Part shown: positions 5,526-47,529 of the stretch, in pieces
Position numbering within the stretch: position 1 is the first letter of the stretch
Layout of the letters: each line of letters starts with the position of its first letter
From: Escherichia coli O157:H7
Lineage (GTDB): Bacteria; Pseudomonadota; Gammaproteobacteria; Enterobacterales; Enterobacteriaceae
Length of the DNA stretch: 64,000 nucleotides
Assembly: GCF_013167455.1 (NCBI RefSeq)
Contig: NZ_CP038328.1
Strand: one strand, 5' to 3'
Position numbers and translations under genes: made by a program
Notes under the pieces: model-generated
Seen by the model: the letters and a program-made list of their open reading frames with translations, nothing else
Told to the model about the DNA's origin: nothing
Database searches by the model: none

Positions 5526-6926
5526 TCAGCGCGTATTATGAACGGGTGTTTTTTGCCACAATACCAGCTTTTTCCAGCGCGCCATAATCGGCACGGTACA
5601 GATAATCCCTATCGCTAATAAGCCGGTAGAGATCACTTCTAACTGTTGCGCCGGGCGGAATAACATCACCACCAACACAAAGGTAATAAAGCCGATTACC
5701 AGCCAGGTGAGCCACGGGTAAAGCCACATGCGCAAGCGAATTTCGCTTCCTTCTGCTCGCAGAATTTTACGCATCCGCAACTGTGAAACGGCGATGACTA
5801 AATAAACCAGCAGGGCGATAGCACCGGAGCTGTCGATCAGGAATTTAAACACTTTCGCAGGTGCGTAATAGTTCACCACGACCGTTAAAAATGCCGCTCC
5901 GGTGGAGAGTAACACCGCCACATACGGGGTTTTACTGCGGTTGATTTTGCCCATTACCGCGGGCGCATCACCGCGACGGCTTAAGGAGTAGAGCATCCTT
6001 GACGCGGTATACAGCGCCGAGTTCAGGCAACTGGTTACGGAAAGTAATATCACGCAGTCCATGATTAATTTCGCATGGGGTATATTGAGCAATTCCAGAA
6101 CCGAGCGATAAGATCCAACGGCTTTCAGCCCCGGCATATTCCACGGTATTAACGCCACTACGACAAAAATAGAGCACAAATAGAAGATAGAAATACGCCA
6201 GATAACCGAGTTGGTAGCGCGGACAATATGTTTTTCCGGCGTGTCGGATTCCGCGGCGGCAATGGTGACAATTTCTGCGCCCATAAACGAGAACATGGTG
6301 ATCAACATCGCGCTTAATACCGCACCGAAGCCGTTGGGCATAAAGCCGCCGCTATCCCACAATCTTGAGATCCCGCTCACGTCGGCATACGGGTAAAAAC
6401 CGCTAATTGCGACTGCACCAAGGAAAATAAAGGCCAGGATAGCGATGACTTTGCACAGCGCCAGCCAGAACTCAAATTCGCCGTAGTTTTTAACGCTTAA
6501 TAAATTACTGCCAGTTAAGGCAAGGGTAATGACGAGGGAAAATAACCAGATGGGAATGCCTGGAACCCATGAGTGCAGGATCATGGCGGCGATGTTGGCT
6601 TCCAGCGGGATAACCAGTACCCAAAACCACCAGTACAACCAGCCGATGGTATAACCCGCCCAACGACCAATAGCTTTATCGGCATAGGTGGAAAACGAAC
6701 CGGTATCGGGCGTGGCAACCGCCATTTCCGCCAACATCCGCATAATCATAACCACCAGTAGCCCGGCGAACAGATAGGCCAGTAATACCGCCGGGCCCGC
6801 TTCGGCGATGGCGACGCTGGAACCGACAAACAGACTTGCGCCGATAACACCGGCAATAGACAACATGGTGACATGGCGTGACTTCAGCCCGCCGCCTAAC
6901 TCATGTGGTTGCGATGATTGCCCCAT
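5526..6926 (-). CDS. gabP: GABA permease GabP (APC family)
   Basis: 466 aa from the MGQSSQPHELGGGLKSRH start; 12-TM amino-acid permease; follows gabT. Confidence 0.9.
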   Translation of the reverse strand: MGQSSQPHELGGGLKSRHVTMLSIAGVIGASLFVGSSVAIAEAGPAVLLAYLFAGLLVVMIMRMLAEMAVATPDTGSFSTYADKAIGRWAGYTIGWLYWWFWVLVIPLEANIAAMILHSWVPGIPIWLFSLVITLALTGSNLLSVKNYGEFEFWLALCKVIAILAFIFLGAVAISGFYPYADVSGISRLWDSGGFMPNGFGAVLSAMLITMFSFMGAEIVTIAAAESDTPEKHIVRATNSVIWRISIFYLCSIFVVVALIPWNMPGLKAVGSYRSVLELLNIPHAKLIMDCVILLSVTSCLNSALYTASRMLYSLSRRGDAPAVMGKINRSKTPYVAVLLSTGAAFLTVVVNYYAPAKVFKFLIDSSGAIALLVYLVIAVSQLRMRKILRAEGSEIRLRMWLYPWLTWLVIGFITFVLVVMLFRPAQQLEVISTGLLAIGIICTVPIMARWKKLVLWQKTPVHNTR

Positions 6927-7163
6927 CCTGAATCCTCTCGAAAGTGTGTCACTTGGGAGAGCGCCCCGACATTTCCCGCGTCGGGTCACGCGTATAATTG
7001 TTATTGATTCTTTTTGCCGGAGAGCGGCTCCGCCTTACCCGGCCAACATAGATTTATTCCTGTTCACGTACAGATTGTCGGATGCGGCGTAAACGCCTTA
7101 TCCGACCTGGATCCCCGTAGGCCGGACAAGACGCGCAGCGTCGCCTCCGGCATAGGAGCGGCG

Positions 7164-8444
7164 CTACTGCTTTGCCTCAGCAAAACACTGGCTGATGATC
7201 TCCAGACCCTGACGGATCTGAGCGTCTTCAATGGTGAGCGGTACAAGGATGCGCAGCACGTTGTAATACGGGCCGCAGGAGAGAAGAATCAGGCCTTTAT
7301 CGCGGGCGCGAGCCACGATCTCGGCGGTGAGTTTGGCGTCCGGCTTGTTGTGATCGCCGTCTTCAAACAGCTCGATGGCGATCATCGCCCCCAGCCCGCG
7401 TACGTCGCCGATCTCAGGGTGTTTTTCGGCGATCGCCAACAATCCATCTTTCAACTTCTGCCCCAGATCGTTGGCTTTCTGCAGCAGATTTTCCTGCTCG
7501 AACACCTTCAACACTTCCAGCGCCGCCACGCAGGCAATCGGATTACCGGCATAGGTGCCACCCAGCCCGCCTGGAGCGACGGCATCCATCACTTCGGCGC
7601 GCCCGGTGACGCCCGCCAGTGGGAAGCCGCCTGCGATCGATTTCGCAAAGGTGGTGAGATCTGGTGCCACGCCCATTTGCTCCATCGCAAACAGCGTGCC
7701 GGTACGCCCCGCGCCGCTCTGCACTTCATCGGCAATCAGCATGATCCCGTGCTCGTCACACAGCGCGCGTAAACGCTGCATAAACGCAGGCGTCGCGGCG
7801 TAGAAACCGCCTTCGCCCTGAACCGGCTCAATCACGATGGCGGCGATATCTTCCGGCGCAGCATCATTTTTAAAAATTCGGTGGATACTGGCGATAGCAT
7901 CATCTTCACTGATGCCGTGCAGTGGGCAAGGATAAAGCGCGCGATAAACGTGCCCTGGCATCAGGCCCATGCCCGCAGAGTACGGATTCACCTTGCCGGT
8001 CAGCGCCAGCGTGTAATGCGTGCGCCCGTGATACGCGCCGCTAAAAGCGATGGTGCCGCTACGTTTGGTGGCAGCGCGGGCGATTTTCACCGCGTTTTCC
8101 ACCGCTTCGGAACCGGTCGTAACCAGCAGCGTTTTCTTGGCAAAATCGCCCGGCACCTTCTGATTCATAATCTCGCACAGCTCCAGATACGGCTCGTAAG
8201 CCAGCACCTGGAAGCAGGTGTGCGACAGTTTTTTCAACTGCGCTTCCACCGCGGCAACCACTTTCGGATGCAGGTGCCCGGTATTGAGCACCGCAATGCC
8301 GCCCGCGAAATCAAGATACTCACGGCCTTCAACGTCCCACACCCGGCAGTTTTCCGCGCGATCAGCGAAAATGGGGTGAATTTGCCCAACGCCACGAGGA
8401 ATTGCCTGACTGCGGCGCTGCATTAACTCTTTATTGCTGCTCAT
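7164..8444 (-). CDS. gabT: 4-aminobutyrate aminotransferase GabT
   Basis: 426-aa class-III aminotransferase with PLP-lysine context; gabD-gabT-gabP order. Confidence 0.95.
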   Translation of the reverse strand: MSSNKELMQRRSQAIPRGVGQIHPIFADRAENCRVWDVEGREYLDFAGGIAVLNTGHLHPKVVAAVEAQLKKLSHTCFQVLAYEPYLELCEIMNQKVPGDFAKKTLLVTTGSEAVENAVKIARAATKRSGTIAFSGAYHGRTHYTLALTGKVNPYSAGMGLMPGHVYRALYPCPLHGISEDDAIASIHRIFKNDAAPEDIAAIVIEPVQGEGGFYAATPAFMQRLRALCDEHGIMLIADEVQSGAGRTGTLFAMEQMGVAPDLTTFAKSIAGGFPLAGVTGRAEVMDAVAPGGLGGTYAGNPIACVAALEVLKVFEQENLLQKANDLGQKLKDGLLAIAEKHPEIGDVRGLGAMIAIELFEDGDHNKPDAKLTAEIVARARDKGLILLSCGPYYNVLRILVPLTIEDAQIRQGLEIISQCFAEAKQ

Positions 8445-22703: not shown

Positions 22704-23025
22704 AATAAAATGACAGTCTTCTTATTTATGAGGATTAATTCTCAGATTTGTAAAGTTTAAATCTTAAAAAAATCTATATTTAACGTAATTCTTTACGTTT
22801 TTTCTGGCAGAGCTTTTGCTATAAGGCTTAGAGATGGTTTTCTTAATATCGGGTATGGATACAGCCCACTAGCCGTACCTGTTTATTTGACGTCAAATAA
22901 AATTTTTCAAGCCATTAATATATATACCAATTAAACAAGATTCATTGTAAAAAATTTGAATTATTTTGAATTGGAATATATTTAATAAGTGAGAGTGATA
23001 TTAATTTGTTAAGTTTGAGGTGAAA

Positions 23026-24231
23026 ATGGGATATAAAGTAAAGAAATTCATCATGAGTAGTGGAGAGCGAGGATGCCTGATCCTTGATAAAAAAAGTAAT
23101 CTACCAACTTACTATCAAAATCTATTTCTTACTACAGACATAAGAAATAGAGGCGCAACGGCCTCAACGATGGAAATAGTTGCAACTAACTTACTAATTT
23201 TCAGTAATTTCTTGGATGGTAGGGGAATTGATATAATTGAGAGAGTTGAACTTAAAAAATATCTCAGCGTTGCAGAAATAGATGATCTGGTAAGATATGC
23301 GAAACAAAGATTCGACAGACAAAAAATCATAAATATAAAATCGACAAATTATAGGTTTATTGCGAAGAGAACCTTTAGTTATAGAATACACGTTTTTTCA
23401 CGCTACCTTAAGTGGTTATGTGGATTAGTTCATTCGTCAAAGGGGATTCATGCAAAGTATGAAGTAGACGTATTTATTGAAAGTATCAGAGCACATATTC
23501 CAAGAAACAGTTCATTGAATATGAATGAAATATCTGAAAAATCGTTGAATGAAGAAGAGATCAAAGTGCTTTTCCGTCTATTGGAAATTGGCGGGATTGA
23601 AAACCCTTTCCATAAGGAAGTACAGGTCAGGAACAGACTAATATTTACCTTGCTCTTAAATTTAGGTTTAAGGGCTGGAGAGTTGCTCAATCTTAAAATA
23701 GATGATTTTGATCTCAGAGACAACACTTTAAGTGTAGTCAGAAGACATGATTCAAAAGAAGATGGAAGATCTTATCAACCATTAGTAAAGACTGGAGAAA
23801 GGGTTATTCCGTTATCTGATGAGTTAGCCCGTGAAATTTTTGATTACATAAGCAATAGCAGAGAAAAAATGACAAAAAGGAAAAAGCATAATTTCTTATT
23901 TGTGGCTCATTGCACCGGAAAAAACGCAGGAGAACCCTTAAGCATTTCAGCTTATGAGAAGGTGATATCAACACTGAAACGAGCAAGTCCAGAGCTATAT
24001 AATCTTTCAGGCCATAGGTTAAGGCACTCTTGGAATTATATGTATTCTAAAGGAATAGAAGGTGCTGAATTAGAATATAATAGAAGGAAAGATTTAAGGA
24101 ATTATTTAATGGGTTGGTCAAAGGAGTCAATAATGTGTGATAGATACAACTATAAATATATATCGCAACAAGAGAAGGATGTCGTCCTAAAGGTCTATAA
24201 ATCAGTAAGTAAAATAATTAGTGGAGTTTAG
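23026..24231 (+). CDS. Tyrosine recombinase, first of three tandem genes
   Basis: Catalytic-box motifs visible in translation: LGLRAGELLNL (Arg), VKTGERVIPL (Lys), GHRLRHSWNYMY (H-x-x-R-H), C-terminal RYNYKY (Tyr); AT-rich. Confidence 0.75.
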   Translation: MGYKVKKFIMSSGERGCLILDKKSNLPTYYQNLFLTTDIRNRGATASTMEIVATNLLIFSNFLDGRGIDIIERVELKKYLSVAEIDDLVRYAKQRFDRQKIINIKSTNYRFIAKRTFSYRIHVFSRYLKWLCGLVHSSKGIHAKYEVDVFIESIRAHIPRNSSLNMNEISEKSLNEEEIKVLFRLLEIGGIENPFHKEVQVRNRLIFTLLLNLGLRAGELLNLKIDDFDLRDNTLSVVRRHDSKEDGRSYQPLVKTGERVIPLSDELAREIFDYISNSREKMTKRKKHNFLFVAHCTGKNAGEPLSISAYEKVISTLKRASPELYNLSGHRLRHSWNYMYSKGIEGAELEYNRRKDLRNYLMGWSKESIMCDRYNYKYISQQEKDVVLKVYKSVSKIISGV

Positions 24232-24232
24232 T

Positions 24233-25546
24233 ATGGAAAACAAATGTATTGAAAGTGAGCAAATCTTTTTTGCTAAGATGAACAGGTATAGTTTCAAACT
24301 GTCAGATAAGAAATGGCAACTGGATAAAGAAAACTGCGTATACCCTCATAAAGTTGTAGATAGAATGCCTACAAAAATGAAACTTAGCTACTTAAAAACA
24401 TTGGCTTACTATGCGTCTGAATATAGTTCTTTTTATATTCAAAGTATTAACAATCTATTTTATGAGTGGTTTGGTGCGATGACTATCGATACTATTGATG
24501 ACAAAGCAATATATCAATTGAATGTTTATTTAGGTTCAGAAAGAAACTACAAACTAAACTTAATTAAGGCTTTCATCATTAAATGGAAAAATCTCAATTA
24601 CCCTGGGGTAGAAGCGACTGCCATTAGAATGCTGGAGAAAATAAAAATCATTCCAAACCAAACAGGAGATGCAGTTAAAAGACGAGATCCAAATAAAGGA
24701 CCTTTAACTGAAGCGGAATTCAATAACATCATTAACGCCGTTGGAAAATTTTATCATGAGAAGAAAATTCAATGCTTTTTGTATTGTTATATCCTTTTGC
24801 TGGCAATAACAGGAAGAAGGCCATTACAATTAATATCTCTAAAAGCTAAAGATCTCATTAAAAATGAGAGAGGGTGCTTTTTGAATGTACCAAAAGTAAA
24901 ACAAAGAAAATGTTTCAGAAAAGAATTTAACATGGTTATGATAGAGCCGTTCTTATATGACAGCTTATCAATGCTAATTAATCAAAATCAGGCGTTTGTT
25001 GAAGATAAATTCAGTGTTGGGATTAGTAACTATAGAGGCGAATTACCAATCTTCATGAATTTAGATAAGATTACGGAAACAAAAAGGATTGAGGATTTTT
25101 TATATGATTTAACAACAGATTTTTTCCATATGAAAAATTCAGTTATGTCAAAACTATTAAAACACTTTCCGTCAAAATTCGATGTTAGGTCAGAAAGGAC
25201 TAACAGCTATATAGAACTTAATGCTAGAAGATTCAGATATACGTTAGGAAGTCGACTGGCTAATGAAGGAGCCTCAATTGAGGTGATTGCTAAAGCGTTA
25301 GATCATAAATCAGTAAACTCTTCTATAATATATATAAAAAATAATCCTGACAACGTTTATGACATCGATAAGAGACTAAGTGCGTTTTTTAACCCCTTAT
25401 CTAATATACTTATGGGCATAGAGATTGAAGAAAACAAGAACTTTTTTATCAAGTTTGTTTCAGATGCATTTTTCTTATTGGAAGATACGAAAGAGGATTT
25501 GAAATGTTTAACGTGTAAAAAATTCAATCCCTGGAGAGCATTATGA
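24233..25546 (+). CDS. Tyrosine recombinase, second of three tandem genes
   Basis: Starts 2 nt after the upstream stop with GGAG Shine-Dalgarno; motifs ITGRRPLQLISLK, RRFRYTLGSRLA, ALDHKSVNSSIIYIK. Confidence 0.75.
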   Translation: MENKCIESEQIFFAKMNRYSFKLSDKKWQLDKENCVYPHKVVDRMPTKMKLSYLKTLAYYASEYSSFYIQSINNLFYEWFGAMTIDTIDDKAIYQLNVYLGSERNYKLNLIKAFIIKWKNLNYPGVEATAIRMLEKIKIIPNQTGDAVKRRDPNKGPLTEAEFNNIINAVGKFYHEKKIQCFLYCYILLLAITGRRPLQLISLKAKDLIKNERGCFLNVPKVKQRKCFRKEFNMVMIEPFLYDSLSMLINQNQAFVEDKFSVGISNYRGELPIFMNLDKITETKRIEDFLYDLTTDFFHMKNSVMSKLLKHFPSKFDVRSERTNSYIELNARRFRYTLGSRLANEGASIEVIAKALDHKSVNSSIIYIKNNPDNVYDIDKRLSAFFNPLSNILMGIEIEENKNFFIKFVSDAFFLLEDTKEDLKCLTCKKFNPWRAL

Positions 25547-27174
25547 ACAATATATTTATTTTTGAACCAAGCAATAAAAACAACCCTCTCGATAATGTTA
25601 TTAAGTTTATCGAGTTTTGTAAGAGTACTATTTCTAATAATAATTTAACAACTTCATGGGAAAGCAATAAATGGAAAGGTTTATATAGGTTTACTAAGTT
25701 TAACTCAAAAAACAACCTAAACAGCAAGGAGTGCTTAGATGATAGCTTTATTAATTTTGCTAAAGCATATATGTTGCATGTGCATTCATTCAATAAATCT
25801 AAGACGAAACACTCAACATTATCAATGTTGAAGATTGTCGAATTCGTTTTACTTAAAATCAATATGGAAGCTAATGTAAACTATTGCAACAATTCAATCT
25901 ATGATGAATGCATAAGGATAGCCTCTGAAAAGTATTCTAAAGCACATGCATTTGCTATTGGGAAAGAACTTGAGAAATTGAGTTCATTTTTAAATGATAA
26001 TAGGATGACTAACTCATTTTATTTATTTTGGGTAAATCCAATTAGGTATAGGATTACTCAGTCTTGGACTGGTTATGATTCTTCACTGGAAGGCCATTCT
26101 AGATTGCCTGATATCAAATCAGTTATTGCGATTGCTGAGATTTTTTCAAAGCGGGATGAACAATTATCGTCAAGAGATATATTTACTACATCTGTGCTTG
26201 CTTTACTTATGTGTGCACCGAGTAGGATATCGGAAATTTTAGCTTTGCCAGCGGATTGTGAAATCACAGAATGTGATGGAAAGGGCATTCAAAGATACGG
26301 TTTAAGATTTTTTTCAGCAAAAGGGTATGAAGGCAATATAAAATGGATTCCAACTTTAATGATACCTGTAGCTAAAAAGGCTATTAGCAGATTAAAAGAA
26401 TTATCAAGTCAAGCGAGGTTATTGGCTGCTGAAATTCAAAAGAATTACTCTAATTCAACGAAGGGAACCCTTAAAGAAAATATACCTCCTGATCTCTTTT
26501 GGTATGATAGAGAGAAGAAAATCAAATATTCTAATGCGCTTTGCTTGTTAACTGAAGGACAGTTAAATCAAAATAAAAAGGAAATGTCAGATAAATTATT
26601 CAGACCTACAACGAATTTTTTTAAAACTGATATCATTGATTCTGATTATATAAAAGGGTATTTTAATGTTTTTAAAAGACATGGTTATATAAATGAAGAT
26701 GGTAGCCCATATTTGCTAAGAACACATCAACTAAGGCATCTTCTCAACACATTTGCTCAAATAAATGGTATGGATGAATTTAGTATTGCTCGCTGGTCTG
26801 GACGTAAGCTTATTTCTCAAAATGTTTCTTATGACCACAGATCGCATCTTCAAATGTCTAAAGCAATAAGAGAAAAAAAGTTATCAGTATGTGTTAATGA
26901 GCACAGAATAAAGGATATTCCAGTAGTGGATCTTAATGAGTTTGACTCACTTAGTAGTGGTGCAGTACTTGTATCAAAACATGGCTACTGCAAGCACTCA
27001 TATGCGTTTAAGCCGTGTGATAATTATCCAATTAAGAACTCTGGTTTAGATAACGAAACGATTTCAAATATCCACGATAAAATTTTAAAAAGAACACTGT
27101 ATGATAAAAATGATGGGAACATAAATGCTGATAAATGGTATGAATTCCATAAAAAAATAAAAAAAGGAGAATAA
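25543..27174 (+). CDS. Tyrosine recombinase, third of three tandem genes (543 aa)
   Basis: ATGA start/stop overlap with the upstream gene; motifs CAPSRISEILAL, LRTHQLRHLLNTF, WSGRK...NVSYDH. Confidence 0.75.
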   Translation: MNNIFIFEPSNKNNPLDNVIKFIEFCKSTISNNNLTTSWESNKWKGLYRFTKFNSKNNLNSKECLDDSFINFAKAYMLHVHSFNKSKTKHSTLSMLKIVEFVLLKINMEANVNYCNNSIYDECIRIASEKYSKAHAFAIGKELEKLSSFLNDNRMTNSFYLFWVNPIRYRITQSWTGYDSSLEGHSRLPDIKSVIAIAEIFSKRDEQLSSRDIFTTSVLALLMCAPSRISEILALPADCEITECDGKGIQRYGLRFFSAKGYEGNIKWIPTLMIPVAKKAISRLKELSSQARLLAAEIQKNYSNSTKGTLKENIPPDLFWYDREKKIKYSNALCLLTEGQLNQNKKEMSDKLFRPTTNFFKTDIIDSDYIKGYFNVFKRHGYINEDGSPYLLRTHQLRHLLNTFAQINGMDEFSIARWSGRKLISQNVSYDHRSHLQMSKAIREKKLSVCVNEHRIKDIPVVDLNEFDSLSSGAVLVSKHGYCKHSYAFKPCDNYPIKNSGLDNETISNIHDKILKRTLYDKNDGNINADKWYEFHKKIKKGE

Positions 27175-27573
27175 ATGGCTAAGCATATAAATGGTTATCA
27201 TGAGAAGAAGATTGTAGATGTTATTAACACATGGTCTATAGATGAAAAACTAACCTGGAATGCTTTGTGCGATAGGTTAGTCAGGGTTATTGGGAAAAGA
27301 CCATCAAGACAATCCTTAAGTAGTCATGTAAGGATTGCGGAAAGCTTCAATGTGAAAAAAACCACAATCAAATCTGGTGTAATACACACTGTAAAACCTG
27401 CTAATTTAAAAGTGGCTTCTCAACGAATTAAAAGACTTGAAGCAGAAAATGAAGCTTTGAAGGCATTAAATGAACGCTATTTAGAGCAGTTCAAAGTATG
27501 GCTTTATAATGCTCACCTTAAACAAATAACGATTGAAGAACTTAATAATCCGTTACCTGCAAAATACCTTTAA
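27175..27573 (+). CDS. Small 132-aa protein with C-terminal coiled coil, translationally coupled to the recombinase trio (TnpC-like position)
   Basis: ATG directly abuts the TAA of the upstream gene; helical RIKRLEAENEALKALNERYLEQ segment. Confidence 0.6.
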   Translation: MAKHINGYHEKKIVDVINTWSIDEKLTWNALCDRLVRVIGKRPSRQSLSSHVRIAESFNVKKTTIKSGVIHTVKPANLKVASQRIKRLEAENEALKALNERYLEQFKVWLYNAHLKQITIEELNNPLPAKYL

Positions 27574-28479: not shown

Positions 28480-29778
<1,299 letters not shown>

Positions 29779-29801
29779 TTTATGTTTCTGTAAAAAGCCC
29801 G

Positions 29802-29835
29802 TAGGTATCAACTGCGGGCTAAATTTTCCCTTGAT
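29802..29835 (+). terminator. Rho-independent terminator after the PE-repeat gene
   Basis: agcccg...cgggct hairpin followed by aaatttt. Confidence 0.5.
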
Positions 29836-29853
29836 GCTGGTTTTGTCTTTTAT

Positions 29854-30249
29854 CTAAAAAATGCCAGTCTTCACGTTGCTTGTTCCAGCATTAAAGATGT
29901 ATGTGCTGACTTTTTCGCCTTTGAAAGAAACTGTCAGAGATTTAGTTTGTGAGTCTGCGCCACCTGCAAGCAGTCCCACAACGGGGATGAAAGAGGTTGC
30001 TTTGGACTGGCTGTTATACATAGTGTATGACCATTGTTCTTCACCATCGATCAAAGAACGGCTGTCAGGTTCACCGAACGATGCTAACACGTCCTGTTTT
30101 GTAGTTTTGCCTTTAACAATTTTGGTTTTCACACTTTCCTGCGTCTCATTTTTCAATGACTGGTTGCCTACTGAAGAACAACCTGCCAAGGTCAGAAAAA
30201 CGAATCTATATGAGAGTTTTTTGTACCTGAGACTAAATCGCCCTCCCAA
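29854..30249 (-). CDS. Putative lipoprotein; 5' end overlaps the IS30 remnant, native start possibly lost
   Basis: Lipobox LTLAGCSS after a hydrophobic stretch; ORF-track start is TTG; the first ~13 codons lie inside IS30-derived sequence. Confidence 0.45.
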   Translation of the reverse strand: MGGRFSLRYKKLSYRFVFLTLAGCSSVGNQSLKNETQESVKTKIVKGKTTKQDVLASFGEPDSRSLIDGEEQWSYTMYNSQSKATSFIPVVGLLAGGADSQTKSLTVSFKGEKVSTYIFNAGTSNVKTGIF

Positions 30250-30947
30250 TGCCCTAGAGAGCGTCTGTTATCGATATTTCGGGAACGTTCGTGAATTGGT
30301 GTTCCGTTCACTATGTTAATCGTACCTCTTTCGCCTTTGCGGGTATGACGCCTGCCATGGCGAAGGCTATGCGACCGTCGCAGATGCTGTATATTCAGGT
30401 GGTGTAGCGCTTCACGGCTACGAAAGTACAGCGTTTTATAAATTGTCTCAGGTGATATTCGCAGCGTTTTTTGACGTGGTTTTGTTCGCCTTAACCATCC
30501 TGATATTTGCTCTGGAGACCATTTCATCTCCAGCTTTTCCAGAACAAGCTTTCGCAATGGTAAATTTTGATCCAGTAAGCACGGTTTTGGCCTTTTCGCC
30601 ATTCTGTTGGCTCGGTTATTAGCATCAACAGCTTTGTAATAGCGTCTGCCCCGATTACGCTGAACTTCACGTGAGATCGTCGAAGGACTGCGATTCAGCG
30701 CAGTAGCTATCGCACGAATGCTCATTTTGGCTGACAAACCAGCTCGTATCTCCTCGCGCTCAGACAGTGTCAGGTGAGCTACAGCCCGCTTACGCTCATG
30801 GGGTTTTATGCCGCCAGTATCCCTTAACATAGTGAAGATCGTTCCGGGTTTTGAACCCAGGATATTCGCTATTTCACTGAAGCCTGTTCCGTTCTTCCAT
30901 AGTTCAAAAACAGAGGCTTTTTCCTCTGCTGTAAATGTTCGTCTCAT
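30192..30947 (-). pseudogene. IS30 transposase, C-terminally truncated (about 246 of 383 aa)
   Basis: MRRTFTAEEKASVFELWKNGTGFSEIANILG...HWEGDLVSGTKNSHI then unrelated DSFF-stop. Confidence 0.8.
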
Positions 30948-31009
30948 TCAAAAAACCTCCGCAACCCCATGTTTTCACATAACTGTTGCGTTGACCAATT
31001 GAATCTACA
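30207..31009 (-). mobile_element. IS30 remnant (left inverted repeat plus 5' two-thirds of transposase)
   Basis: Terminal sequence TGTAGATTCAATTGGTCAACGCAACAGTTATGTGAAA (minus strand, ending at 31009); transposase translation matches remembered IS30 InsI up to ...GTKNSHI, then diverges. Confidence 0.8.
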
Positions 31010-31024
31010 GTGGTCTGTTTTAAT

Positions 31025-31094
31025 ATTTCTATTTCTATTTCTATTTCTATTTCTATTTCTATTTCTATTTCTATTTCTATTTCTATTTCTATTT
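31025..31094 (+). repeat. (ATTTCT)n hexanucleotide microsatellite, about 12 units
   Basis: Perfect tandem repeat beginning 16 nt outside the IS30 terminus. Confidence 0.95.
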
Positions 31095-31288
31095 GTTGTG
31101 ATTTTTTCTTTAGTTCATGTATTTCGATTTGTTTCTGAATTATCGGGGGTAGTGTCTTCCCTTTTCCCTGAGGCTTATCATGCAGTTATTTTCGCCATCT
31201 TGGTATTGTGGAAATACCGACATCCATAGCTTTGGTGAGCTCTGTTCAGGTGGCCAAATTCAGAAAACCATTACGGAGGAAGAAGGCG

Positions 31289-31855
31289 ATGGCTAAACCA
31301 GCGCGAAGACGATGTAACCGTAAAAGAGAAGATTTAACTGTTAAAAGGATATTTGAGTTACTAAGTTTCGATAAATCTACCGGGGTATTTAGATGGAAAG
31401 TTCCCACTCAGGGAAGGATAGCATTAAATAGTGTTGCTGGAGCTTTTGATTCCAACGGTTATTCAATGATCATGATAGATGGGCGTAGATATAAAACTCA
31501 CGTCTTAGTTTTTTACATAACTCATAATCGTTGGCCTGCTGGTCAAATTGACCACGTTAATGGAATTAGGACCGACAATAGGCCAGAAAGTTTAAGAGAA
31601 TGCCTGCCAATAGAAAATTCAAGAAATATAAGGATCCGAAAGAATAGCAAATCAGGTTGCAGAGGGGTTACTTGGCACAAACGACAGAAAAAATGGAATG
31701 TTAGGCTAGGATTCCATGGCAAGAGTAAACACTTCGGATGCTTTGATGATCTGGAGTTAGCGGTACTAGTTGCTGAAGAAGCCCGAGATAAGTATTACGG
31801 TGATTTTTCCGGCAACGAAAGGAGCACTTATGCGAATCTATCGAAGGAAATGTAA
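31289..31855 (+). CDS. HNH endonuclease with AP2 DNA-binding domain (phage homing-endonuclease-like)
   Basis: ATG with GGAGGA Shine-Dalgarno; HNH motif [18 protein letters not shown] and AP2-like [31 protein letters not shown]. Confidence 0.65.
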
Positions 31856-32441
31856 ATGTTGCAATGAATGGTTTATACCAAAATATCAAAATCAATATTG
31901 GTGTAATGAGATTTGTGGAACCAAGATAGCACTCGAACGACGAAGTAAAGAACGCGAAAAAGCGGAAAAGGCAGAAAAGGCAGCAGAGAAGAAACGACGA
32001 CGAGAGGAGCAGAAACAGAAAGATAAACTTAAGATTCAAAAACTCGCCTTAAAGCCCCGCAGTTACTGGATTAAACAAGCCCAACAAGCCGTACACGCCT
32101 TCATCAGAGAAAGAGACCGCGACTTACCATGTATCTCGTGCGGAACGCTCACGTCTGCTCAGTGGGATGCCGGACATTACCGGACAACTGCTGCGGCACC
32201 TCAACTCCGATTTGATGAACGCAATATTCACAAGCAATGCGTGGTGTGCAACCAGCACAAAAGCGGAAATCTCGTTCCGTATCGCGTCGAACTGATTAGC
32301 CGCATCGGGCAGGAAGCAGTAGAGGAAATCGAATCAAACCATAACCGCTATCGCTGGACTGTCGAAGAGTGCAGGGCCATCAAGGCGGAGTATCAACAGA
32401 AACTTAAAAAACTGCGAAACAGCAGAAGTGAGGTTGCATGA
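31830..32441 (+). CDS. ninG: Lambdoid NinG/Rap-family recombination protein
   Basis: [30 protein letters not shown] zinc-ribbon N-terminus and [12 protein letters not shown] tract typical of NinG. Confidence 0.75.
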
Positions 32442-33103
32442 ATATCTACGAAAGAATTGATGGCAGCAAATACCGAAATATTTGGGTAGTTGGCGATCTG
32501 CACGGATGCTACACGAACCTGATGAAAAAACTGGAGACGATAGGATTCGACACCAAAAAAGACCTGCTTATCTCGGTGGGCGATTTGGTTGATCGCGGTA
32601 CAGAGAACGTAGAATGCCTGGAATTAATCACATTCCCCTGGTTCAGAGCTGTACGTGGAAACCATGAGCAAATGATGATTGATGGCTTATCAGAGCGTGG
32701 AAACGTCAATCACTGGCTGCTTAATGGCGGTGGCTGGTTCTTTAATCTCGATTACGACAAAGAAATTCTGGCTAAAGCTCTTGCCCATAAAGCAGATGAA
32801 CTTCCGTTAATCATCGAACTGGTGAGTAAAGGAAAAAAATATGTCATCTGCCACGCCGATTATCCTTGTGATAAATACGAGTTTGGAAAGCCAGTTGATC
32901 ATCAGCAGGTAATCTGGAACCGCGAACGAATCAGCAACTCACAAGACGGGATCGTGAAAGAAATCAAAGGCGCGGACACGTTCATCTTTGGTCATACGCC
33001 AGCAGTGAAACCACTCAAATTTGCCAACCAGATGTATATCGATACTGGCGCAGTGTTCTGCGGAAACCTCACATTGATTCAGGTACAGGGAGAAGGCGCA
33101 TGA
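32438..33103 (+). CDS. Lambdoid Ser/Thr protein phosphatase (NinI / PP-lambda family)
   Basis: Metallophosphatase motifs GDLHG, GDLVDRG, GNHE; ATGA overlap with ninG. Confidence 0.8.
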
Positions 33104-33723
33104 GACTCGAAAGCGTAGCTAAATTTCATTCGCCAAAAAGCCCGATGATGAGCGACTCACCACGGGCCACGGCTTCTGACTCTCTTTCCGGTACTGATGT
33201 GATGGCTGCTATGGGGATGGCGCAATCACAAGCCGGATTCGGAATGGCTGTATTCTGTGGTAAGCACGAACTCAGCCAGAACGACAAACAAAAGGCTATC
33301 AACTATCTGATGCAATTTGCACACAAGGTATCGGGGAAATACCGTGGCGTGGCAAAGCTTGAAGGAAATACTAAGGCAAAGGTACTGCAAGTGCTCGCAA
33401 CATTCGCTTATGCGGATTATTGCCGTAGTGCCGCTACGCCGGGCGCAAGATGCAGAGATTGCCACGGTACAGGCCGTGCGGTTGATATAGCCAAAACAGA
33501 GCAGTGGGGGATAGTTGCTGAGAAAGAGTGCGGAAGATGTAAAGGCGTCGGTTATTCAAGAATGCCAGCAAGCGCCGCATATCGCGCTGTGACGATGCTA
33601 ATCCCAAACCTTACCCAACCCACCTGGTCACGCACTGTTAAGCCGCTGTATGACGCTCTGGTTGTGCAATGCCACAAGGAAGAGTCAATCGCAGACAACA
33701 TTTTGAATGCGATCACACGTTAG
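33100..33723 (+). CDS. Late-gene antitermination protein Q
   Basis: 207-aa ORF at the canonical position after the nin genes; Cys-rich motifs [10 protein letters not shown] and CGRCKGVGY. Confidence 0.7.
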
Positions 33724-33960
33724 CGCCATGATTGCCACGGATGGCAACATATTAACGGCATAATATTGACTTTTTGAATAACTTTGGGGAAACTTGACAC
33801 CAATAATGGGCGTTTTTTACATGTCATTGATGAGTCTCAATAACCTGCCGCCGAGTAGTTTTTATGCTCTGAATTGTATTTGTGTAGTAAACATGCTGAC
33901 TGCAATGTAATAGAGTTTTTTTAGCCTGTAACCTCTTGACGGCATTGAATTGCTTTTGTT

Positions 33961-34719
33961 ATGAGTTGTAAGCCAATGTTATCATCTTGTATTGGGGTGG
34001 TTATGAAGGATGGTGCGCTGCTCAGGAGTTCTTCACTTTTTATTGCCTACATGGGATGCCTTGGATGGGGGAGTGCTTATTTCTATGGATGGGGTACTTC
34101 TTTTTACTACGGCTTCCCATGGTGGATTGTAGGTGCAGGTGTTGATGATGTTGCCAGAAGTTTATTTTTTGCAGTTATCGTCATTGCTATATTTCTTATC
34201 GGTTGGGGTATTGGTGTTGTATTCTTTTTCGCAGTGAAAAGAAAACATTCTATGCAAGAGCTAAATGTATTTCGCCTTTATTTTGCTGTGGAATTATTGT
34301 TTGTGCCGGCAATTATTGAGTTTTCTATATTGAGACAGAAGATTCAGGTACCTCTTTTGCTACTGTCAGCAGCGATTGCGCTGGCGGTCACAATTTCGAT
34401 AAGATCTTATGGGCGATTTTTATCGGTATCATGCTTCTATGATAAGCCATTTATAAAAAAACATTTTTTTGAGATTGTGATGATTGCTTTTGTGGCATAT
34501 TTCTGGCTTTTTTCATTTCTGACAGGATATTACAAACCGCAGTTTAAGAAAGAATATGAAATGATTAATTATAATGATGGTTGGTATTATGTTCTTGCTC
34601 GTTATGATAATTGTCTGGTTTTGTCTACTTCTTTCAATGCAGGTAGTAAAAGGTTTGTGATTTATCAATCAGCACAAGATAAGAATCTTCAGGTTGATAT
34701 TGTAAGGACCAGAATTTAA
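33961..34719 (+). CDS. Polytopic membrane protein of unknown function at the Q-downstream cargo position
   Basis: 252-aa ORF with several hydrophobic helices rich in W/F/Y/G and a hydrophilic C-terminal tail; AT-rich; occupies the interval where stx lies in Stx phages. Confidence 0.5.
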   Translation: MSCKPMLSSCIGVVMKDGALLRSSSLFIAYMGCLGWGSAYFYGWGTSFYYGFPWWIVGAGVDDVARSLFFAVIVIAIFLIGWGIGVVFFFAVKRKHSMQELNVFRLYFAVELLFVPAIIEFSILRQKIQVPLLLLSAAIALAVTISIRSYGRFLSVSCFYDKPFIKKHFFEIVMIAFVAYFWLFSFLTGYYKPQFKKEYEMINYNDGWYYVLARYDNCLVLSTSFNAGSKRFVIYQSAQDKNLQVDIVRTRI

Positions 34720-35139
34720 TTGGCTGCATAAATAATATTTTAAGTTGCAAGTTGGCTATTCGTAGGAATAGAACCTTAGGCATGCTGAATGCGTTTTCTG
34801 AACATTGTTTTATAAACTGTGTCTGCTTGCTGTTGTGATCCTGCTTTTAGTGATGGTGATGATGGATTTCACCAGCAGGATAATGTTGGTACTGACTGAT
34901 GGCGCTCTGGTCTGCGGCATTGTGGTATTGCTGTGGCCGGTGATAAAAAGAAACAGCCTGCATAATGCTTGATTTTTTTGTTTACTGTTTATTAAAAATA
35001 CTACTGCATGGTGAATCCCCCTGTGCGGAGGGGCAATCAGCAACCAGGTATATGTGATAATCGCGGATTCAGGTGCTGATACTGAATTCACCGGGAGGCA
35101 CCCGGCACCATGCAAGAAAAAGAATGTGCATGCAAACAT

Positions 35140-46711: not shown

Positions 46712-47188
46712 ATGATATTATTTGTTGGATTTTTGTTGATGGAAATTGTTATGCCTCAGATTAGCCGGACCGCACTGGTACCCTACAGCGCGGAGCAAAT
46801 GTATCAGTTAGTGAATGACGTTCAGTCTTATCCTCAGTTTTTGCCGGGTTGTACCGGAAGTCGGATTCTGGAGTCCACTCCTGGGCAGATGACTGCGGCG
46901 GTAGATGTCTCTAAGGCTGGGATCAGCAAAACGTTTACTACCCGCAACCAGTTGACCAGTAACCAAAGTATTCTTATGAATCTGGTGGATGGGCCGTTCA
47001 AGAAATTGATTGGTGGATGGAAGTTTACGCCGCTGAGCCAGGAGGCGTGTCGTATCGAGTTTCATCTCGACTTTGAGTTTACCAATAAGTTGATTGAACT
47101 CGCTTTTGGTCGCGTGTTTAAAGAGCTGGCGTCTAATATGGTCCAGGCTTTTACGGTTCGTGCGAAAGAGGTTTACAGTGCCAGGTAA
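46712..47188 (+). CDS. ratA: SRPBCC-domain protein RatA/PasT
   Basis: 158-aa ORF; synteny smpB-ratA-ratB-bamE. Confidence 0.8.
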
Positions 47189-47468
47189 AATTGCCGTTGA
47201 GGTGGCTTATGCGCTACCTAAGAAGCAGTACCTGCAGCGCGTGACGCTGCAGGAGGGCGCGACGGTTGAAGAAGCTATTCGCGCCAGTGGCTTGCTGGAA
47301 TTGCGTACCGATATCGATTTAACTGAAAACAAAGTCGGCATTTACAGCCGTCCGGCAAAATTAAGCGATAGTGTGCATGATGGCGATCGGGTGGAGATTT
47401 ATCGCCCTCTCATTGCCGATCCGAAAGAGCTTCGCAGGCAACGAGCAGAAAAATCAGCGAATAAATAA
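47178..47468 (+). CDS. ratB: RatB (UPF0125 protein)
   Basis: GTG start overlapping the ratA 3' end; 96 aa (M)[26 protein letters not shown]... Confidence 0.75.
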
Positions 47469-47474
47469 CGGACA

Positions 47475-47505
47475 GAAAAAAGGTGCTCATTGAGCACCTT
47501 TTTTA
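47475..47505. terminator. Bidirectional rho-independent terminator between ratB and bamE
   Basis: aaaaaaggtgctc-attg-agcaccttttttaa. Confidence 0.75.
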
Positions 47506-47529
47506 ACGTCTTTGAGAGCAACTTTATTA

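Follow-up and report, generated by a model that had tools for sequence, protein, structure and literature searches.

An IS30 remnant as a deletion scar between a truncated genomic island and a truncated lambda-like prophage in Escherichia coli O157:H7

The IS30 stub in this part of the Escherichia coli O157:H7 chromosome is an ordinary deletion scar at which two truncated elements, a genomic island and a lambda-like prophage, have been welded together, and we put at roughly 85% the probability that the scar is inert and arose through a succession of mobile-element events. The window, i.e., the whole 64,000-nucleotide stretch of DNA that was analysed, lies in a degraded region running from ypjA through HNH-NinG-Q to espW, nleG, espM2, dinI, and ssrA. 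We take it to be of the Sp17 type, on the basis of its position, its gene content, and the map of Sakai. The junctions of the window are present identically in at least 272 complete genomes and are therefore neither chance nor assembly artefacts. The Sp17 region (Sp17a/Sp17b) of O157 Sakai has been described as a degraded region of two tandem prophage elements beside ssrA, and was scored in tabular form as being without nearly all phage functions (Asadulghani et al. 2009, PMC2669165); its gene content and that of the window are alike from ypjA through ssrA. The pieces of the scar are thus already known: the partial IS30 transposase from RefSeq, the degraded tandem Sp17 from the literature, and the adjoining hexanucleotide repeat as a standard MLVA locus.

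The IS30 remnant occupies positions 30206..31009 on the minus strand and corresponds to nucleotides 1–804 of the 1221-bp element. Ungapped blastn alignment with the K-12 copy reveals 803/804 identical positions, with a single mismatch and no gaps. The 26-bp left inverted repeat (TGTAGATTCAATTGGTCAACGCAACA, at 31009-30984) is identical to that of IS30A in the IS911 of K-12, whereas the stub represents only two-thirds of the element: in the alignment with K-12 IS30 homology ends at nucleotide 804, the locus contains no right inverted repeat, and the final 417 bp are missing. The sequence-only reading had placed the end of the remnant at about 30207, which alignment with intact IS30 (nucleotide 804, window 30206) and the PGAP annotation of a partial IS30 transposase (30207..30947) bear out to within one base; no intact native ATG, which would have argued for another breakpoint, was found for the adjacent lipoprotein gene. 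The truncated transposase reading frame in the ORF list (30192..30947, minus strand, 251 codons) consists of 247 IS30 codons followed by DSFF and a stop codon contributed by lipoprotein-gene DNA, in comparison with the full-length, 383-residue DDE transposase of K-12. It matches only profile positions 1–147 of the 267 in the NCBIfam model transpos_IS30; a Pfam search returned only the helix-turn-helix domains HTH_38 and HTH_32, and the rve catalytic core was absent from the results. With its right inverted repeat and its catalytic domain both gone, the stub can neither move nor be mobilised as one piece, and it should be unable to transpose.

The two sides of the stub belong to different elements. 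Homology to a related island (L005) stops at 30206, and homology to a related prophage that is free of IS30 (L002) starts at 31010. At least 13 kb more of the island follows the lipoprotein gene in L005 and in a second relative, L012; in L005 this continuation specifies a 222-aa protein, a relaxase, an Hxs system, ParB-like proteins, and a serine recombinase. The recombinase module of the window is part of a separate integrative island of the mobilisable type, itself truncated. The stub does join this module to the lambdoid remnant, as had been proposed from the sequence, but the module is not the prophage cargo that it was called. The copy of this island in O155:H21 was rejected as the ancestral state; it sits elsewhere, near yncH/pao, and can therefore be used only as a reference for gene content. 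On the phage side, the DNA left of the repeat in the IS30-free relatives (L002 and L003) contains cI, cro, cII, O, P, ren, ninB, a methylase gene, and ninE, all of which are missing from the window. The first intact gene of the lambdoid remnant is that for an HNH endonuclease (31289..31855, plus strand; PGAP annotation of an identical sequence), followed by those for NinG, a phosphatase, and Q.

The DNA adjoining the left end of IS30 is a decayed IS911-like relic of the IS3 family (31010..31275, minus strand), comprising left-end sequence and the C-terminal half of orfA; the ATG of the HNH gene lies 13–16 nt past its left end. The uninterrupted relic of L002 aligns with K-12 IS911 (blastn) in two blocks of 70–75% identity and in a left-end block matching at 30/31 positions, and its translation matches IS911 OrfA with 48% identity (BLASTP, E=2e-21). 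Homology runs into the start of orfB, of which only about 100 nt are left in L002. Decay is evident from an in-frame stop, the loss of about 127 nt from the N-terminal portion of orfA, and the replacement of AAAAAAG by AAAACAG. Assignment to the IS3 family rests on homology to orfA, including the region of the A6G frameshift site; intact orfA and orfB and both terminal inverted repeats are no longer present. In O157 the rest of the relic's orfA and the start of orfB were lost along with the deletion.

The two-base target duplication of IS30 is invisible in the window alone and was reconstructed from two halves. The relic sequences flanking the insertion point are ...AATGTGGT and GTGGTCTG...; the window reads IS30/GTGGTCTG, another genome (L013) reads ...AATGTAGT/IS30, and the empty site in L002 is AATGTGGTGGTCTG. 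Five genomes carry at the ypjC-ssrA locus the left part of the relic, GT, and then IS30 nucleotides 1221-381, which constitute the complementary half, its 424-nt overlap being 100% identical to the window. A search with synthetic junctions found no complete IS30 at the site, only this complementary truncated half in the five genomes. The presence of two complementary halves at one locus indicates that an intact IS30 was once there and has decayed independently in different lineages.

IS30A of K-12 lies in IS911 (a location supported by PMC9333248) at the homologous AC dinucleotide, in the same orientation and with a two-base duplication, in a host element to which the present relic is only about 75% identical. 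Recombination with an IS911::IS30 composite, with no independent targeting, could in principle account for this coincidence, but the uninterrupted relics in related phages speak against it. IS30 is found a few bases past the frameshift motif in four different IS3-type orfA genes, namely those of K-12 IS911, the phage relic, a Nissle element, and an AR437 element; the motif region ATATTAAAAAAAGCnAC encodes ILKKA, and the left half-site alone recurs among IS30 insertions. As a tentative extension, which we consider possible but doubtful, the frameshift motif region of IS3-family elements (ATATTAAAAAAAGCnAC) may be a natural hot spot for IS30, and the orfA stretch IEMENEI may have seeded the hypervariable typing microsatellite. 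If true, members of one IS family would be inactivated systematically by those of another, and VNTRs could originate from dead insertion sequences. Comparison of the insertion site with a published IS30 hot spot (lambda LHS region 33244-33498, PMC9333248) gave a best score of 18/42, no better than chance, and the insertion site is not palindromic (8/42 positions self-complementary), so that a fit to the published near-palindromic type of hot spot cannot be claimed. The repeated landing of IS30 at the frameshift region of IS3-family elements is in itself a small mobile-element anecdote.

The following order of events is suggested. Homology shows that an IS911-like element of the IS3 family inserted just upstream of HNH/ninG in a lambdoid phage and decayed to a relic of about 390 bp, in which the orfA codons ATTGAAATGGAAAATGAAATA (IEMENEI) correspond to the later (GAAATA)n array. 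IS30 then entered the relic, an event documented by the GT duplication, a few bases past the former A-AAA-AAG frameshift motif and at the same dinucleotide and in the same orientation as IS30A. In the O157:H7 lineage, one non-transpositional deletion would finally have joined IS30 nucleotide 804 to codon 8 of the lipoprotein gene, a junction that is directly visible in the sequence, with the probable loss of the last 417 bp of IS30, the entire left prophage arm (the methylase gene, ninB, ren, P, O, cII, cro, cI, and what lay further out), and the distal island. We infer both the order and the single step; two or more successive deletions would give an identical end state. In the published work transpositional IS30 deletions begin at the edge of an inverted repeat, and those with endpoints distant from the repeats are non-transpositional (PMC9333248). 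As the breakpoint here lies inside IS30, at nucleotide 804, and not at an end of the element, the deletion is not transpositional.

A more specific version of such a deletion, which we consider unlikely although well short of negligible, is that it was promoted by IEE, the IS-excision enhancer of O157. According to a preprint review (10.1101/2023.06.07.543989), IEE is carried by O157:H7 and, at insertion sequences of the copy-out-paste-in type, enhances both excision and more extensive deletions joined at microhomologies by microhomology-mediated end joining, a process applicable to IS30-family elements. Three-way alignment of IS30, the window, and L005 does reveal one base of microhomology, a single shared G, where the inner IS30 breakpoint is fused to codon 8 of the lipoprotein gene; but one base is indistinguishable from chance, IEE was not located in the window, and the 2014C-3011 lineage shows a similar internal truncation.

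The gene at the other side of the junction encodes a lipoprotein with a BamE domain, the native part of which (29854..30205, minus strand) begins at the end of codon 8 and runs through codon 124 to the stop codon. Up to window position 30206 the DNA is 97.7% identical to L005, where the ORF is intact (124 aa) and the product, with N-terminus MKKNIIVGF..., has the lipobox LAGC and matches Pfam BamE (PF04355; E=3.5e-6, residues 36–109). The L005 gene starts with MKKNIIVGFVFLTLAGC (ATG AAA AAA AAC ATA ATC GTA GGA TTC), preceded by the ribosome-binding site GGAAAG. The outer-membrane lipoprotein BamE (SmpA/OmlA) likewise combines a lipobox signal peptide with this domain; the present gene differs in being an island-borne paralogue, 5′-truncated in O157, the housekeeping bamE lying about 16 kb away, near recN. 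NCBIfam searches gave no family matches for the lipoprotein, the HNH ORF, or the EP-repeat protein. In O157 the gene is kept from the last 1–2 bases of codon 8, the first 22–23 nt being gone, and its ATG, ribosome-binding site, and promoter are all deleted; of the signals of a bacterial lipoprotein the lipobox is present, while the ATG and the first 7–8 codons are not. The loss of the native start, suspected from the sequence alone, is thereby confirmed, and the breakpoint, assigned to the first 13 or so codons of the surviving frame, needs only a small correction: codons 1–14 (MGGRFSLRYKKLSY) and two bases of codon 15 of the chimeric ORF (29854..30249, minus strand, 131 codons) are IS30 sequence. 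Its native part opens with (R)FVFLTLAGCSS. As the sequence-only reading stated, a TTG is the only in-frame start upstream of the lipobox (first at 30249 in the ORF list), and it is derived from IS30. PGAP predicts a product of 100 aa that starts past the lipobox, at a TTG within the ORF (30156), and the hydrophobic core of the signal peptide is shortened from 13 residues in L005 to 8. Because it has no ATG, ribosome-binding site, or promoter of its own, and because this core is shortened, the O157 copy is most probably a pseudogene. A crude consensus search of 29700-31400 yielded no sigma-70-like promoter, and a terminator scan of the same interval gave two terminator-like matches, at background level; read-through could still come from the left inverted repeat, where the weak promoter of the IS30 transposase lies.

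That the fusion is functional, the IS30-derived TTG and basic N-terminus (MGGRFSLRYKKLSYR) rebuilding a signal peptide such that a putative BamE-like lipoprotein is transcribed from the IS30 transposase promoter and exported, appears improbable. The chimeric ORF reads without interruption and in frame across the lipobox LAGC, its IS30-derived part supplies five basic residues, and its coding sequence is 100% conserved in O157 genomes, a conservation attributable to the youth of the clone. The sole TTG, however, has no well-spaced Shine-Dalgarno sequence (an AGGG ends 2 nt before it), the hydrophobic core is down to 8 residues, PGAP favours a start after the lipobox, the interval scanned contains no promoter-like site, and the truncated transposase frame overlaps the chimeric ORF and stops at 30192, within the signal-peptide codons. 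A function for either the DNA-binding N-terminal transposase fragment of the stub or the chimeric lipoprotein is still less likely than the proposed IS30 hot spot.

Returning to the scar, the hexanucleotide VNTR (ATTTCT)n lies on the plus strand at 31024..31094 (TRF: period 6, 11.8 copies, 100% matches), and begins 15 nt (31010-31024) after the end of IS30 at 31009, in agreement with the sixteen nucleotides noted earlier. A perfect 12-unit array had been claimed; the array is there, but in the ATTTCT phase it has 11 perfect units (31025-31090) followed by ATTTGT. The relic orfA frame reads the repeat as (GAAATA)n, i.e., (Glu-Ile)n, and the microsatellite sits where the IS3-family transposase gene had a proto-repeat of codons. 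The comparison of isolates proposed in the sequence-only reading gave 6–23 units across O157 genomes among the matches listed, a range and not a distribution, taken from lists of 60 matches ordered by score. Lengths in O157 differ solely by multiples of 6 bp, two IS30-free prophages carry about 5 and about 11 units, and the repeat also occurs in viable Stx1 phages, from which it follows that IS30 did not create it. We infer that the array varies by replication slippage; it should keep changing in 6-bp steps, to which it owes its usefulness as a typing marker.

It is highly improbable that the array is a contingency locus tuning a plus-strand (Phe-Leu)n protein or the expression of HNH-NinG-Q. 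The array is hypervariable, the HNH start codon follows about 195 nt downstream of it, and in IS30-free relatives a plus-strand ORF spans it (87 aa in L002), but a 6-bp unit never shifts the frame, annotation pipelines place three different small ORFs there, an IS911 relic on the opposite strand accounts for the region, and in O157 the plus-strand ORF lost its own start to the IS30 insertion. A search of 5.8 billion proteins returned only seven near-identical sequences, differing just in repeat number, and the (Phe-Leu)n ORF was rejected as a real gene for want of comparative support. Where a contingency locus would act through frame shift or promoter spacing, the array seems to have neither a supported gene nor a promoter-like site to act upon.

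The absence of the prophage early region from the window, which the sequence-only reading ascribed to IS30, is evident from comparison with L002 and L003, but there is very little chance that IS30 itself removed it by intramolecular transposition (adjacent deletion): the element does make deletions via joined-end intermediates (PMC9333248) and the missing DNA begins precisely at the stub, but the element has lost its right inverted repeat, the lipoprotein gene does not adjoin an IS end, the breakpoint is internal (nucleotide 804), and the 2014C-3011 lineage has a second deletion with a different internal breakpoint, at nucleotide 381.

The repeat is the MLVA locus TR1 (synonyms Vhec4 and O157-9), with no difference between the two: the unit matches and the published primers flank the array. 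The neighbouring (GCCAGA)30 is TR2 (Vhec1, O157-10), likewise bracketed by published primers with unique matches. A table of the synonyms is given in PMC3768571, and the loci derive from Noller 2003, Lindstedt 2003, and Keys 2005, as cited in PMC2246123 and PMC3768571. The published units AAATAG and TGGCTC are reverse-complement rotations of ATTTCT and GCCAGA, and both arrays vary in length. The TR1 primer CACTGAAGCCTGTTCCGTTC (PMC2246123) has an exact and unique match at 30875..30894 on the plus strand, within the IS30 stub, and its partner ACTGCATGATAAGCCTCAGG one at 31167..31186 on the minus strand, in the IS911-like relic. Neither PMC2246123 nor PMC3768571 mentions that TR1 lies in an IS911-like relic or that a TR1 primer lies in an IS30 stub. 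Because one primer is inside the stub, the assay depends on a lineage-specific junction; IS30-free prophages with the repeat, and lineages with the complementary deletion, would be expected to give TR1 null alleles. For typing laboratories this tie between the TR1 assay and the IS30 junction is a modest practical point. The biological import is small, the scar being a textbook example of how prophages and islands decay in E. coli O157:H7.

The features described in the sequence-only reading are real and its interpretation is essentially correct, with four corrections that concern the island, the non-transpositional deletion, its extent and the repeat. Alignment with an intact 1221-bp IS30 excised from E. 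coli K-12 reveals that window positions 31009..30206 (minus strand) correspond to nt 1-804 of the element, with no gaps and a single mismatch (IS30 nt 755); the left inverted repeat terminates at 31009 and the breakpoint lies at 30206. This alignment, together with the ORF list and Tandem Repeats Finder, confirms the originally proposed coordinates within a base or two. The transposase ORF (30192..30947, minus strand) encodes 247 transposase residues followed by four foreign codons and a stop. The truncated product retains the helix-turn-helix domains, and a domain search gave no integrase-core match in this ORF; nothing in these comparisons supports a regulatory role for the N-terminal fragment.

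Many complete E. coli O157:H7 chromosomes, that of strain 86-24 among them, match the 1.5 kb around the stub at 100% identity; the 86-24 annotation gives the order ileY tRNA, ypjC, ypjA/EhaD, DUF6387, a helix-turn-helix protein, two tyrosine recombinases, a DNA-binding protein, three hypothetical proteins, the “BamE domain” gene and partial IS30 transposase, HNH endonuclease, NinG, Ser/Thr phosphatase, antiterminator Q, lysis genes interrupted by IS66 and IS1203, tail-fibre fragments, nleG, espW, espM2, dinI and ssrA. Based upon gene content and the Sakai map, we take the region beside ssrA to be Sp17 of Sakai. Sp17 lacks nearly every phage function and comprises two tandem elements, Sp17a and Sp17b (Asadulghani et al., PMC2669165); the window region is likewise degraded and adjoins ssrA. 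At ~37998-40742 (20219-22963 in the annotated record L001) an IS66-family element cuts off the prophage lysozyme gene and is in turn truncated by a copy of IS1203 (IS3-family), beyond which only tail-fibre fragments are found; the same prophage remnant carries additional nested IS scars here. Housekeeping bamE lies on the other side of ssrA (~47174-47515; 6853-7194 in the further record L008), only ~17 kb from the island-borne BamE-domain paralogue.

Pairwise BLAST shows homology to an island of E. coli O155:H21 NWU_1 (L005) from window 22293 to exactly 30206, and to an IS30-free lambdoid prophage of bovine strain F2_407_2_2 (L002) from exactly 31010 to 35034; both partners of the stub are truncated. 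To the left of the repeat, the L002 prophage possesses a divergent 590-aa gene, ninE, a Dam-type methylase, ninB, ren, P, O, cII, cro and a cI-type repressor; the proximal part of the arm of a second IS30-free prophage (L003) contains the 590-aa gene, ninE, methylase and ninB. The O155:H21 island extends at least 13 kb past the lipoprotein gene, its distal part encoding a 222-aa protein, a relaxase, an HxsABCD cluster, a TIGR04141 protein, two ParB-like proteins and a large serine recombinase. Because the island continues past this gene, the recombinase module belongs to an integrative element of its own, rather than being lambdoid-phage cargo as had been supposed; the stub does mark the junction between the two (30206/31010). 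The proposed loss of the prophage early region also holds, the region being present in L002, but island DNA was removed as well: the deletion took the far end of the island, the whole prophage early arm and the last 417 bp of IS30.

Within the island portion, window ~23032-27180 (L001 5253-9401) contains two adjoining tyrosine recombinase genes and an overlapping gene for a 543-aa “DNA-binding protein,” with DUF6387 and helix-turn-helix genes ahead of them. The arrangement is like that of a mobile module with several recombinases; it heads the larger relaxase/Hxs-cluster island in O155:H21 and occurs as a variant in O121:H19 (L006). The 590-aa hypothetical gene (L002 6927-8699; L003 6912-8684, minus strand), which looks like a moron, is oriented opposite to the nin region and lies between ninE and an IS911-like relic. 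It is found in the IS30-free prophages and phage SH2026Stx1, and is missing from the window.

The chimeric lipoprotein ORF (29854..30249, minus strand) begins with TTG. Its relatives were sought with an IS30-free query (window 29780-30205), which identified the gene in E. coli O155:H21 NWU_1 (98% identity), where IS30 does not adjoin it. There the ORF has 124 codons, starts ATG AAA AAA AAC ATA ATC GTA GGA TTC preceded by GGAAAG, and specifies a normal lipoprotein signal peptide (MKKNIIVGFVFLTLAGCSS); the protein matches Pfam BamE (E=3.5e-6). This intact ATG version bears out the proposal that the O157 gene lost its native start. In a three-way alignment, IS30 ...CATATAG is joined to native ATTCGTTTTT, with one G assignable to either side; therefore the first 22-23 bases, the ribosome-binding site and all upstream DNA were lost in O157. 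The chimeric ORF opens with MGGRFSLRYKKLSYR from IS30 DNA, in a frame differing from that of the transposase. The gene is most probably dead, judging from its sequence: the hydrophobic core preceding the lipobox counts 8 residues instead of 13, no Shine-Dalgarno sequence is well placed for the TTG, the truncated transposase frame stops at 30192 within the signal-peptide codons, PGAP starts the gene at an internal TTG (30156) past the lipobox, and a consensus scan of 29700-31400 detected no promoter-like site. Nothing here supports a functional chimeric lipoprotein. PGAP also annotates the intact O155:H21 gene (L005 10078..10452, minus strand) as a 100-aa product from an internal TTG, the alternative being the ATG-started 124-aa ORF with ribosome-binding site and lipobox; the start chosen by PGAP is probably incorrect and seems to follow the model of the truncated O157 gene.

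One stub junction lies at the exact IS30 left end and the other inside IS30, indicating that IS30 transposed into the phage first and that the deletion followed later, from the opposite side. Transpositional IS30 deletions begin at the inverted-repeat edge, and those with endpoints far from the repeats are classed as non-transpositional (Szabo and colleagues, PMC9333248). The sequence-only reading presumed that the IS30 stub made the deletion; with a breakpoint internal to IS30, rather than at the inverted-repeat edge, the O157 deletion belongs to the non-transpositional class. The 1-base microhomology is compatible with illegitimate recombination. The O157 IS-excision enhancer is reported to promote microhomology-joined deletions at ISs of this transposition type (preprint review, 10.1101/2023.06.07.543989), and is a plausible specific cause.

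The complementary half of the element survives in other genomes. A synthetic query (L002 left flank, GT, IS30 right end) was matched end to end by five complete genomes, strain 2014C-3011 (L013) and four others, which carry IS30 nt 381-1221 (L013 14305-15145). In 2014C-3011 the match lies in the same ypjC-ssrA locus as in O157, where ninE, the 590-aa gene and the relic's left part, which ends ...AATGTAGT, are followed by IS30 running in reverse from nt 1221 to nt 381, where it joins a piece of tail gene J; this lineage lost HNH through the tail genes, and not the early region. The O157 junction IS30|GTGGTCTG, the 2014C-3011 half and the empty site AATGTGGTGGTCTG together describe a normal IS30 insertion with GT duplication, and the 424 nt common to both stubs are 100% identical, from which we infer that an intact IS30 once resided in this prophage and that its opposite ends were lost in different lineages by independent deletions with internal breakpoints; the synthetic-junction search found no genome with a complete IS30 at this site.

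Between the IS30 end and the HNH gene, the minus strand carries the decayed remains of an IS911-like element. Its uninterrupted L002 copy shares 70-75% identity with K-12 IS911 across the C-terminal half of orfA and 100 nt at the start of orfB, plus 30/31 bases in a further block near the IS911 left end, and the translated relic matches IS911 OrfA (E=2e-21). The relic orfA is interrupted by an in-frame stop and has lost its N-terminal part; the left end of the relic and the HNH start codon are 13-16 nt apart. IS30A interrupts IS911 in K-12 (PMC9333248), inserted after ...GAAATATTAAAAAAGGCTAC with an AC duplication; the O157 flank is ...GAAATATTAAAACAGACCAC, its dinucleotide homologous to the K-12 site and its orientation the same. 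IS30 occupies the corresponding position in IS3-type orfA genes of Nissle (...GATATATTAAAAAAAGCAAC) and AR437 (...GACATATTAAAAAAAGCCGC), hosts which clearly differ from IS911 and the relic. Thus at least four distinct IS3-family orfA genes (L015, L017, L009, L004) carry IS30 a few bases beyond the ATATTAAAAAAAG frameshift motif, which suggests that the stretch just past this motif is a recurrent IS30 target and agrees with the preference of IS30 for specific hot-spot sequences (PMC9333248). The site is not palindromic and does not resemble the lambda LHS hot spot, and a link to the published consensus is unproven.

The hexamer array is a perfect period-6 repeat of 11.8 copies (31024-31094; Tandem Repeats Finder), beginning 15 nt past the IS30 end. 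The repeat thus adjoins the IS as described, although “12 perfect units” slightly overstated it (11 ATTTCT, then ATTTGT). It was not made by IS30: the same array occurs in the IS30-free prophages (~11 units in L002, ~5 in L003) and in two viable Stx1 phages, SH2026Stx1 and AU6Stx1. On the relic strand it reads (Glu-Ile)n exactly at the ATTGAAATGGAAAATGAAATA (IEMENEI) of IS911, itself already an imperfect three-fold hexamer; most simply, this proto-repeat would have expanded by slippage once the transposase gene died. The TR1 primers of Noller et al. (unit AAATAG, tabulated in PMC2246123) have unique binding sites at 30875-30894 and 31167-31186, and AAATAG is a reverse-complement rotation of ATTTCT. 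Hence the repeat, older than and independent of the stub, is already a well known VNTR (TR1 = Vhec4 = O157-9; PMC3768571). Among the complete O157 genomes listed as matches, length differences from the window in the TR1 span range from -36 to +66 bp and are without exception multiples of six, giving 6-23 units, as the proposed count across isolates was to establish. Such copy-number comparison has in effect been routine for two decades. A contingency locus is unlikely, since six-base steps preserve the reading frame and no promoter is evident. Nor do we regard a plus-strand (Phe-Leu)n small membrane protein as a gene: a search of 5.8 billion proteins returned near-identical copies only, and three distinct small ORFs have been called here by annotation pipelines.

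TR2 (= Vhec1 = O157-10; PMC3768571) is a perfect (GCCAGA)30.7 array at 29499-29682, bounded by its primers at 29195-29212 and 29799-29816, so that these two classic O157 VNTRs are only 1.3 kb apart. The array codes for (Glu-Pro)n close to the C-terminus of a hypothetical protein of 432 aa (28480..29778, plus strand), homologues of which have 401 aa in O155:H21 and 445 aa in O121:H19; the length of this protein therefore varies in frame.

The structure is an annotated decay scar of an ordinary kind, to which the present analysis makes minor additions: the IS911-like origin of the VNTR, a common IS30 target, a complementary stub elsewhere and a typing primer within the stub.
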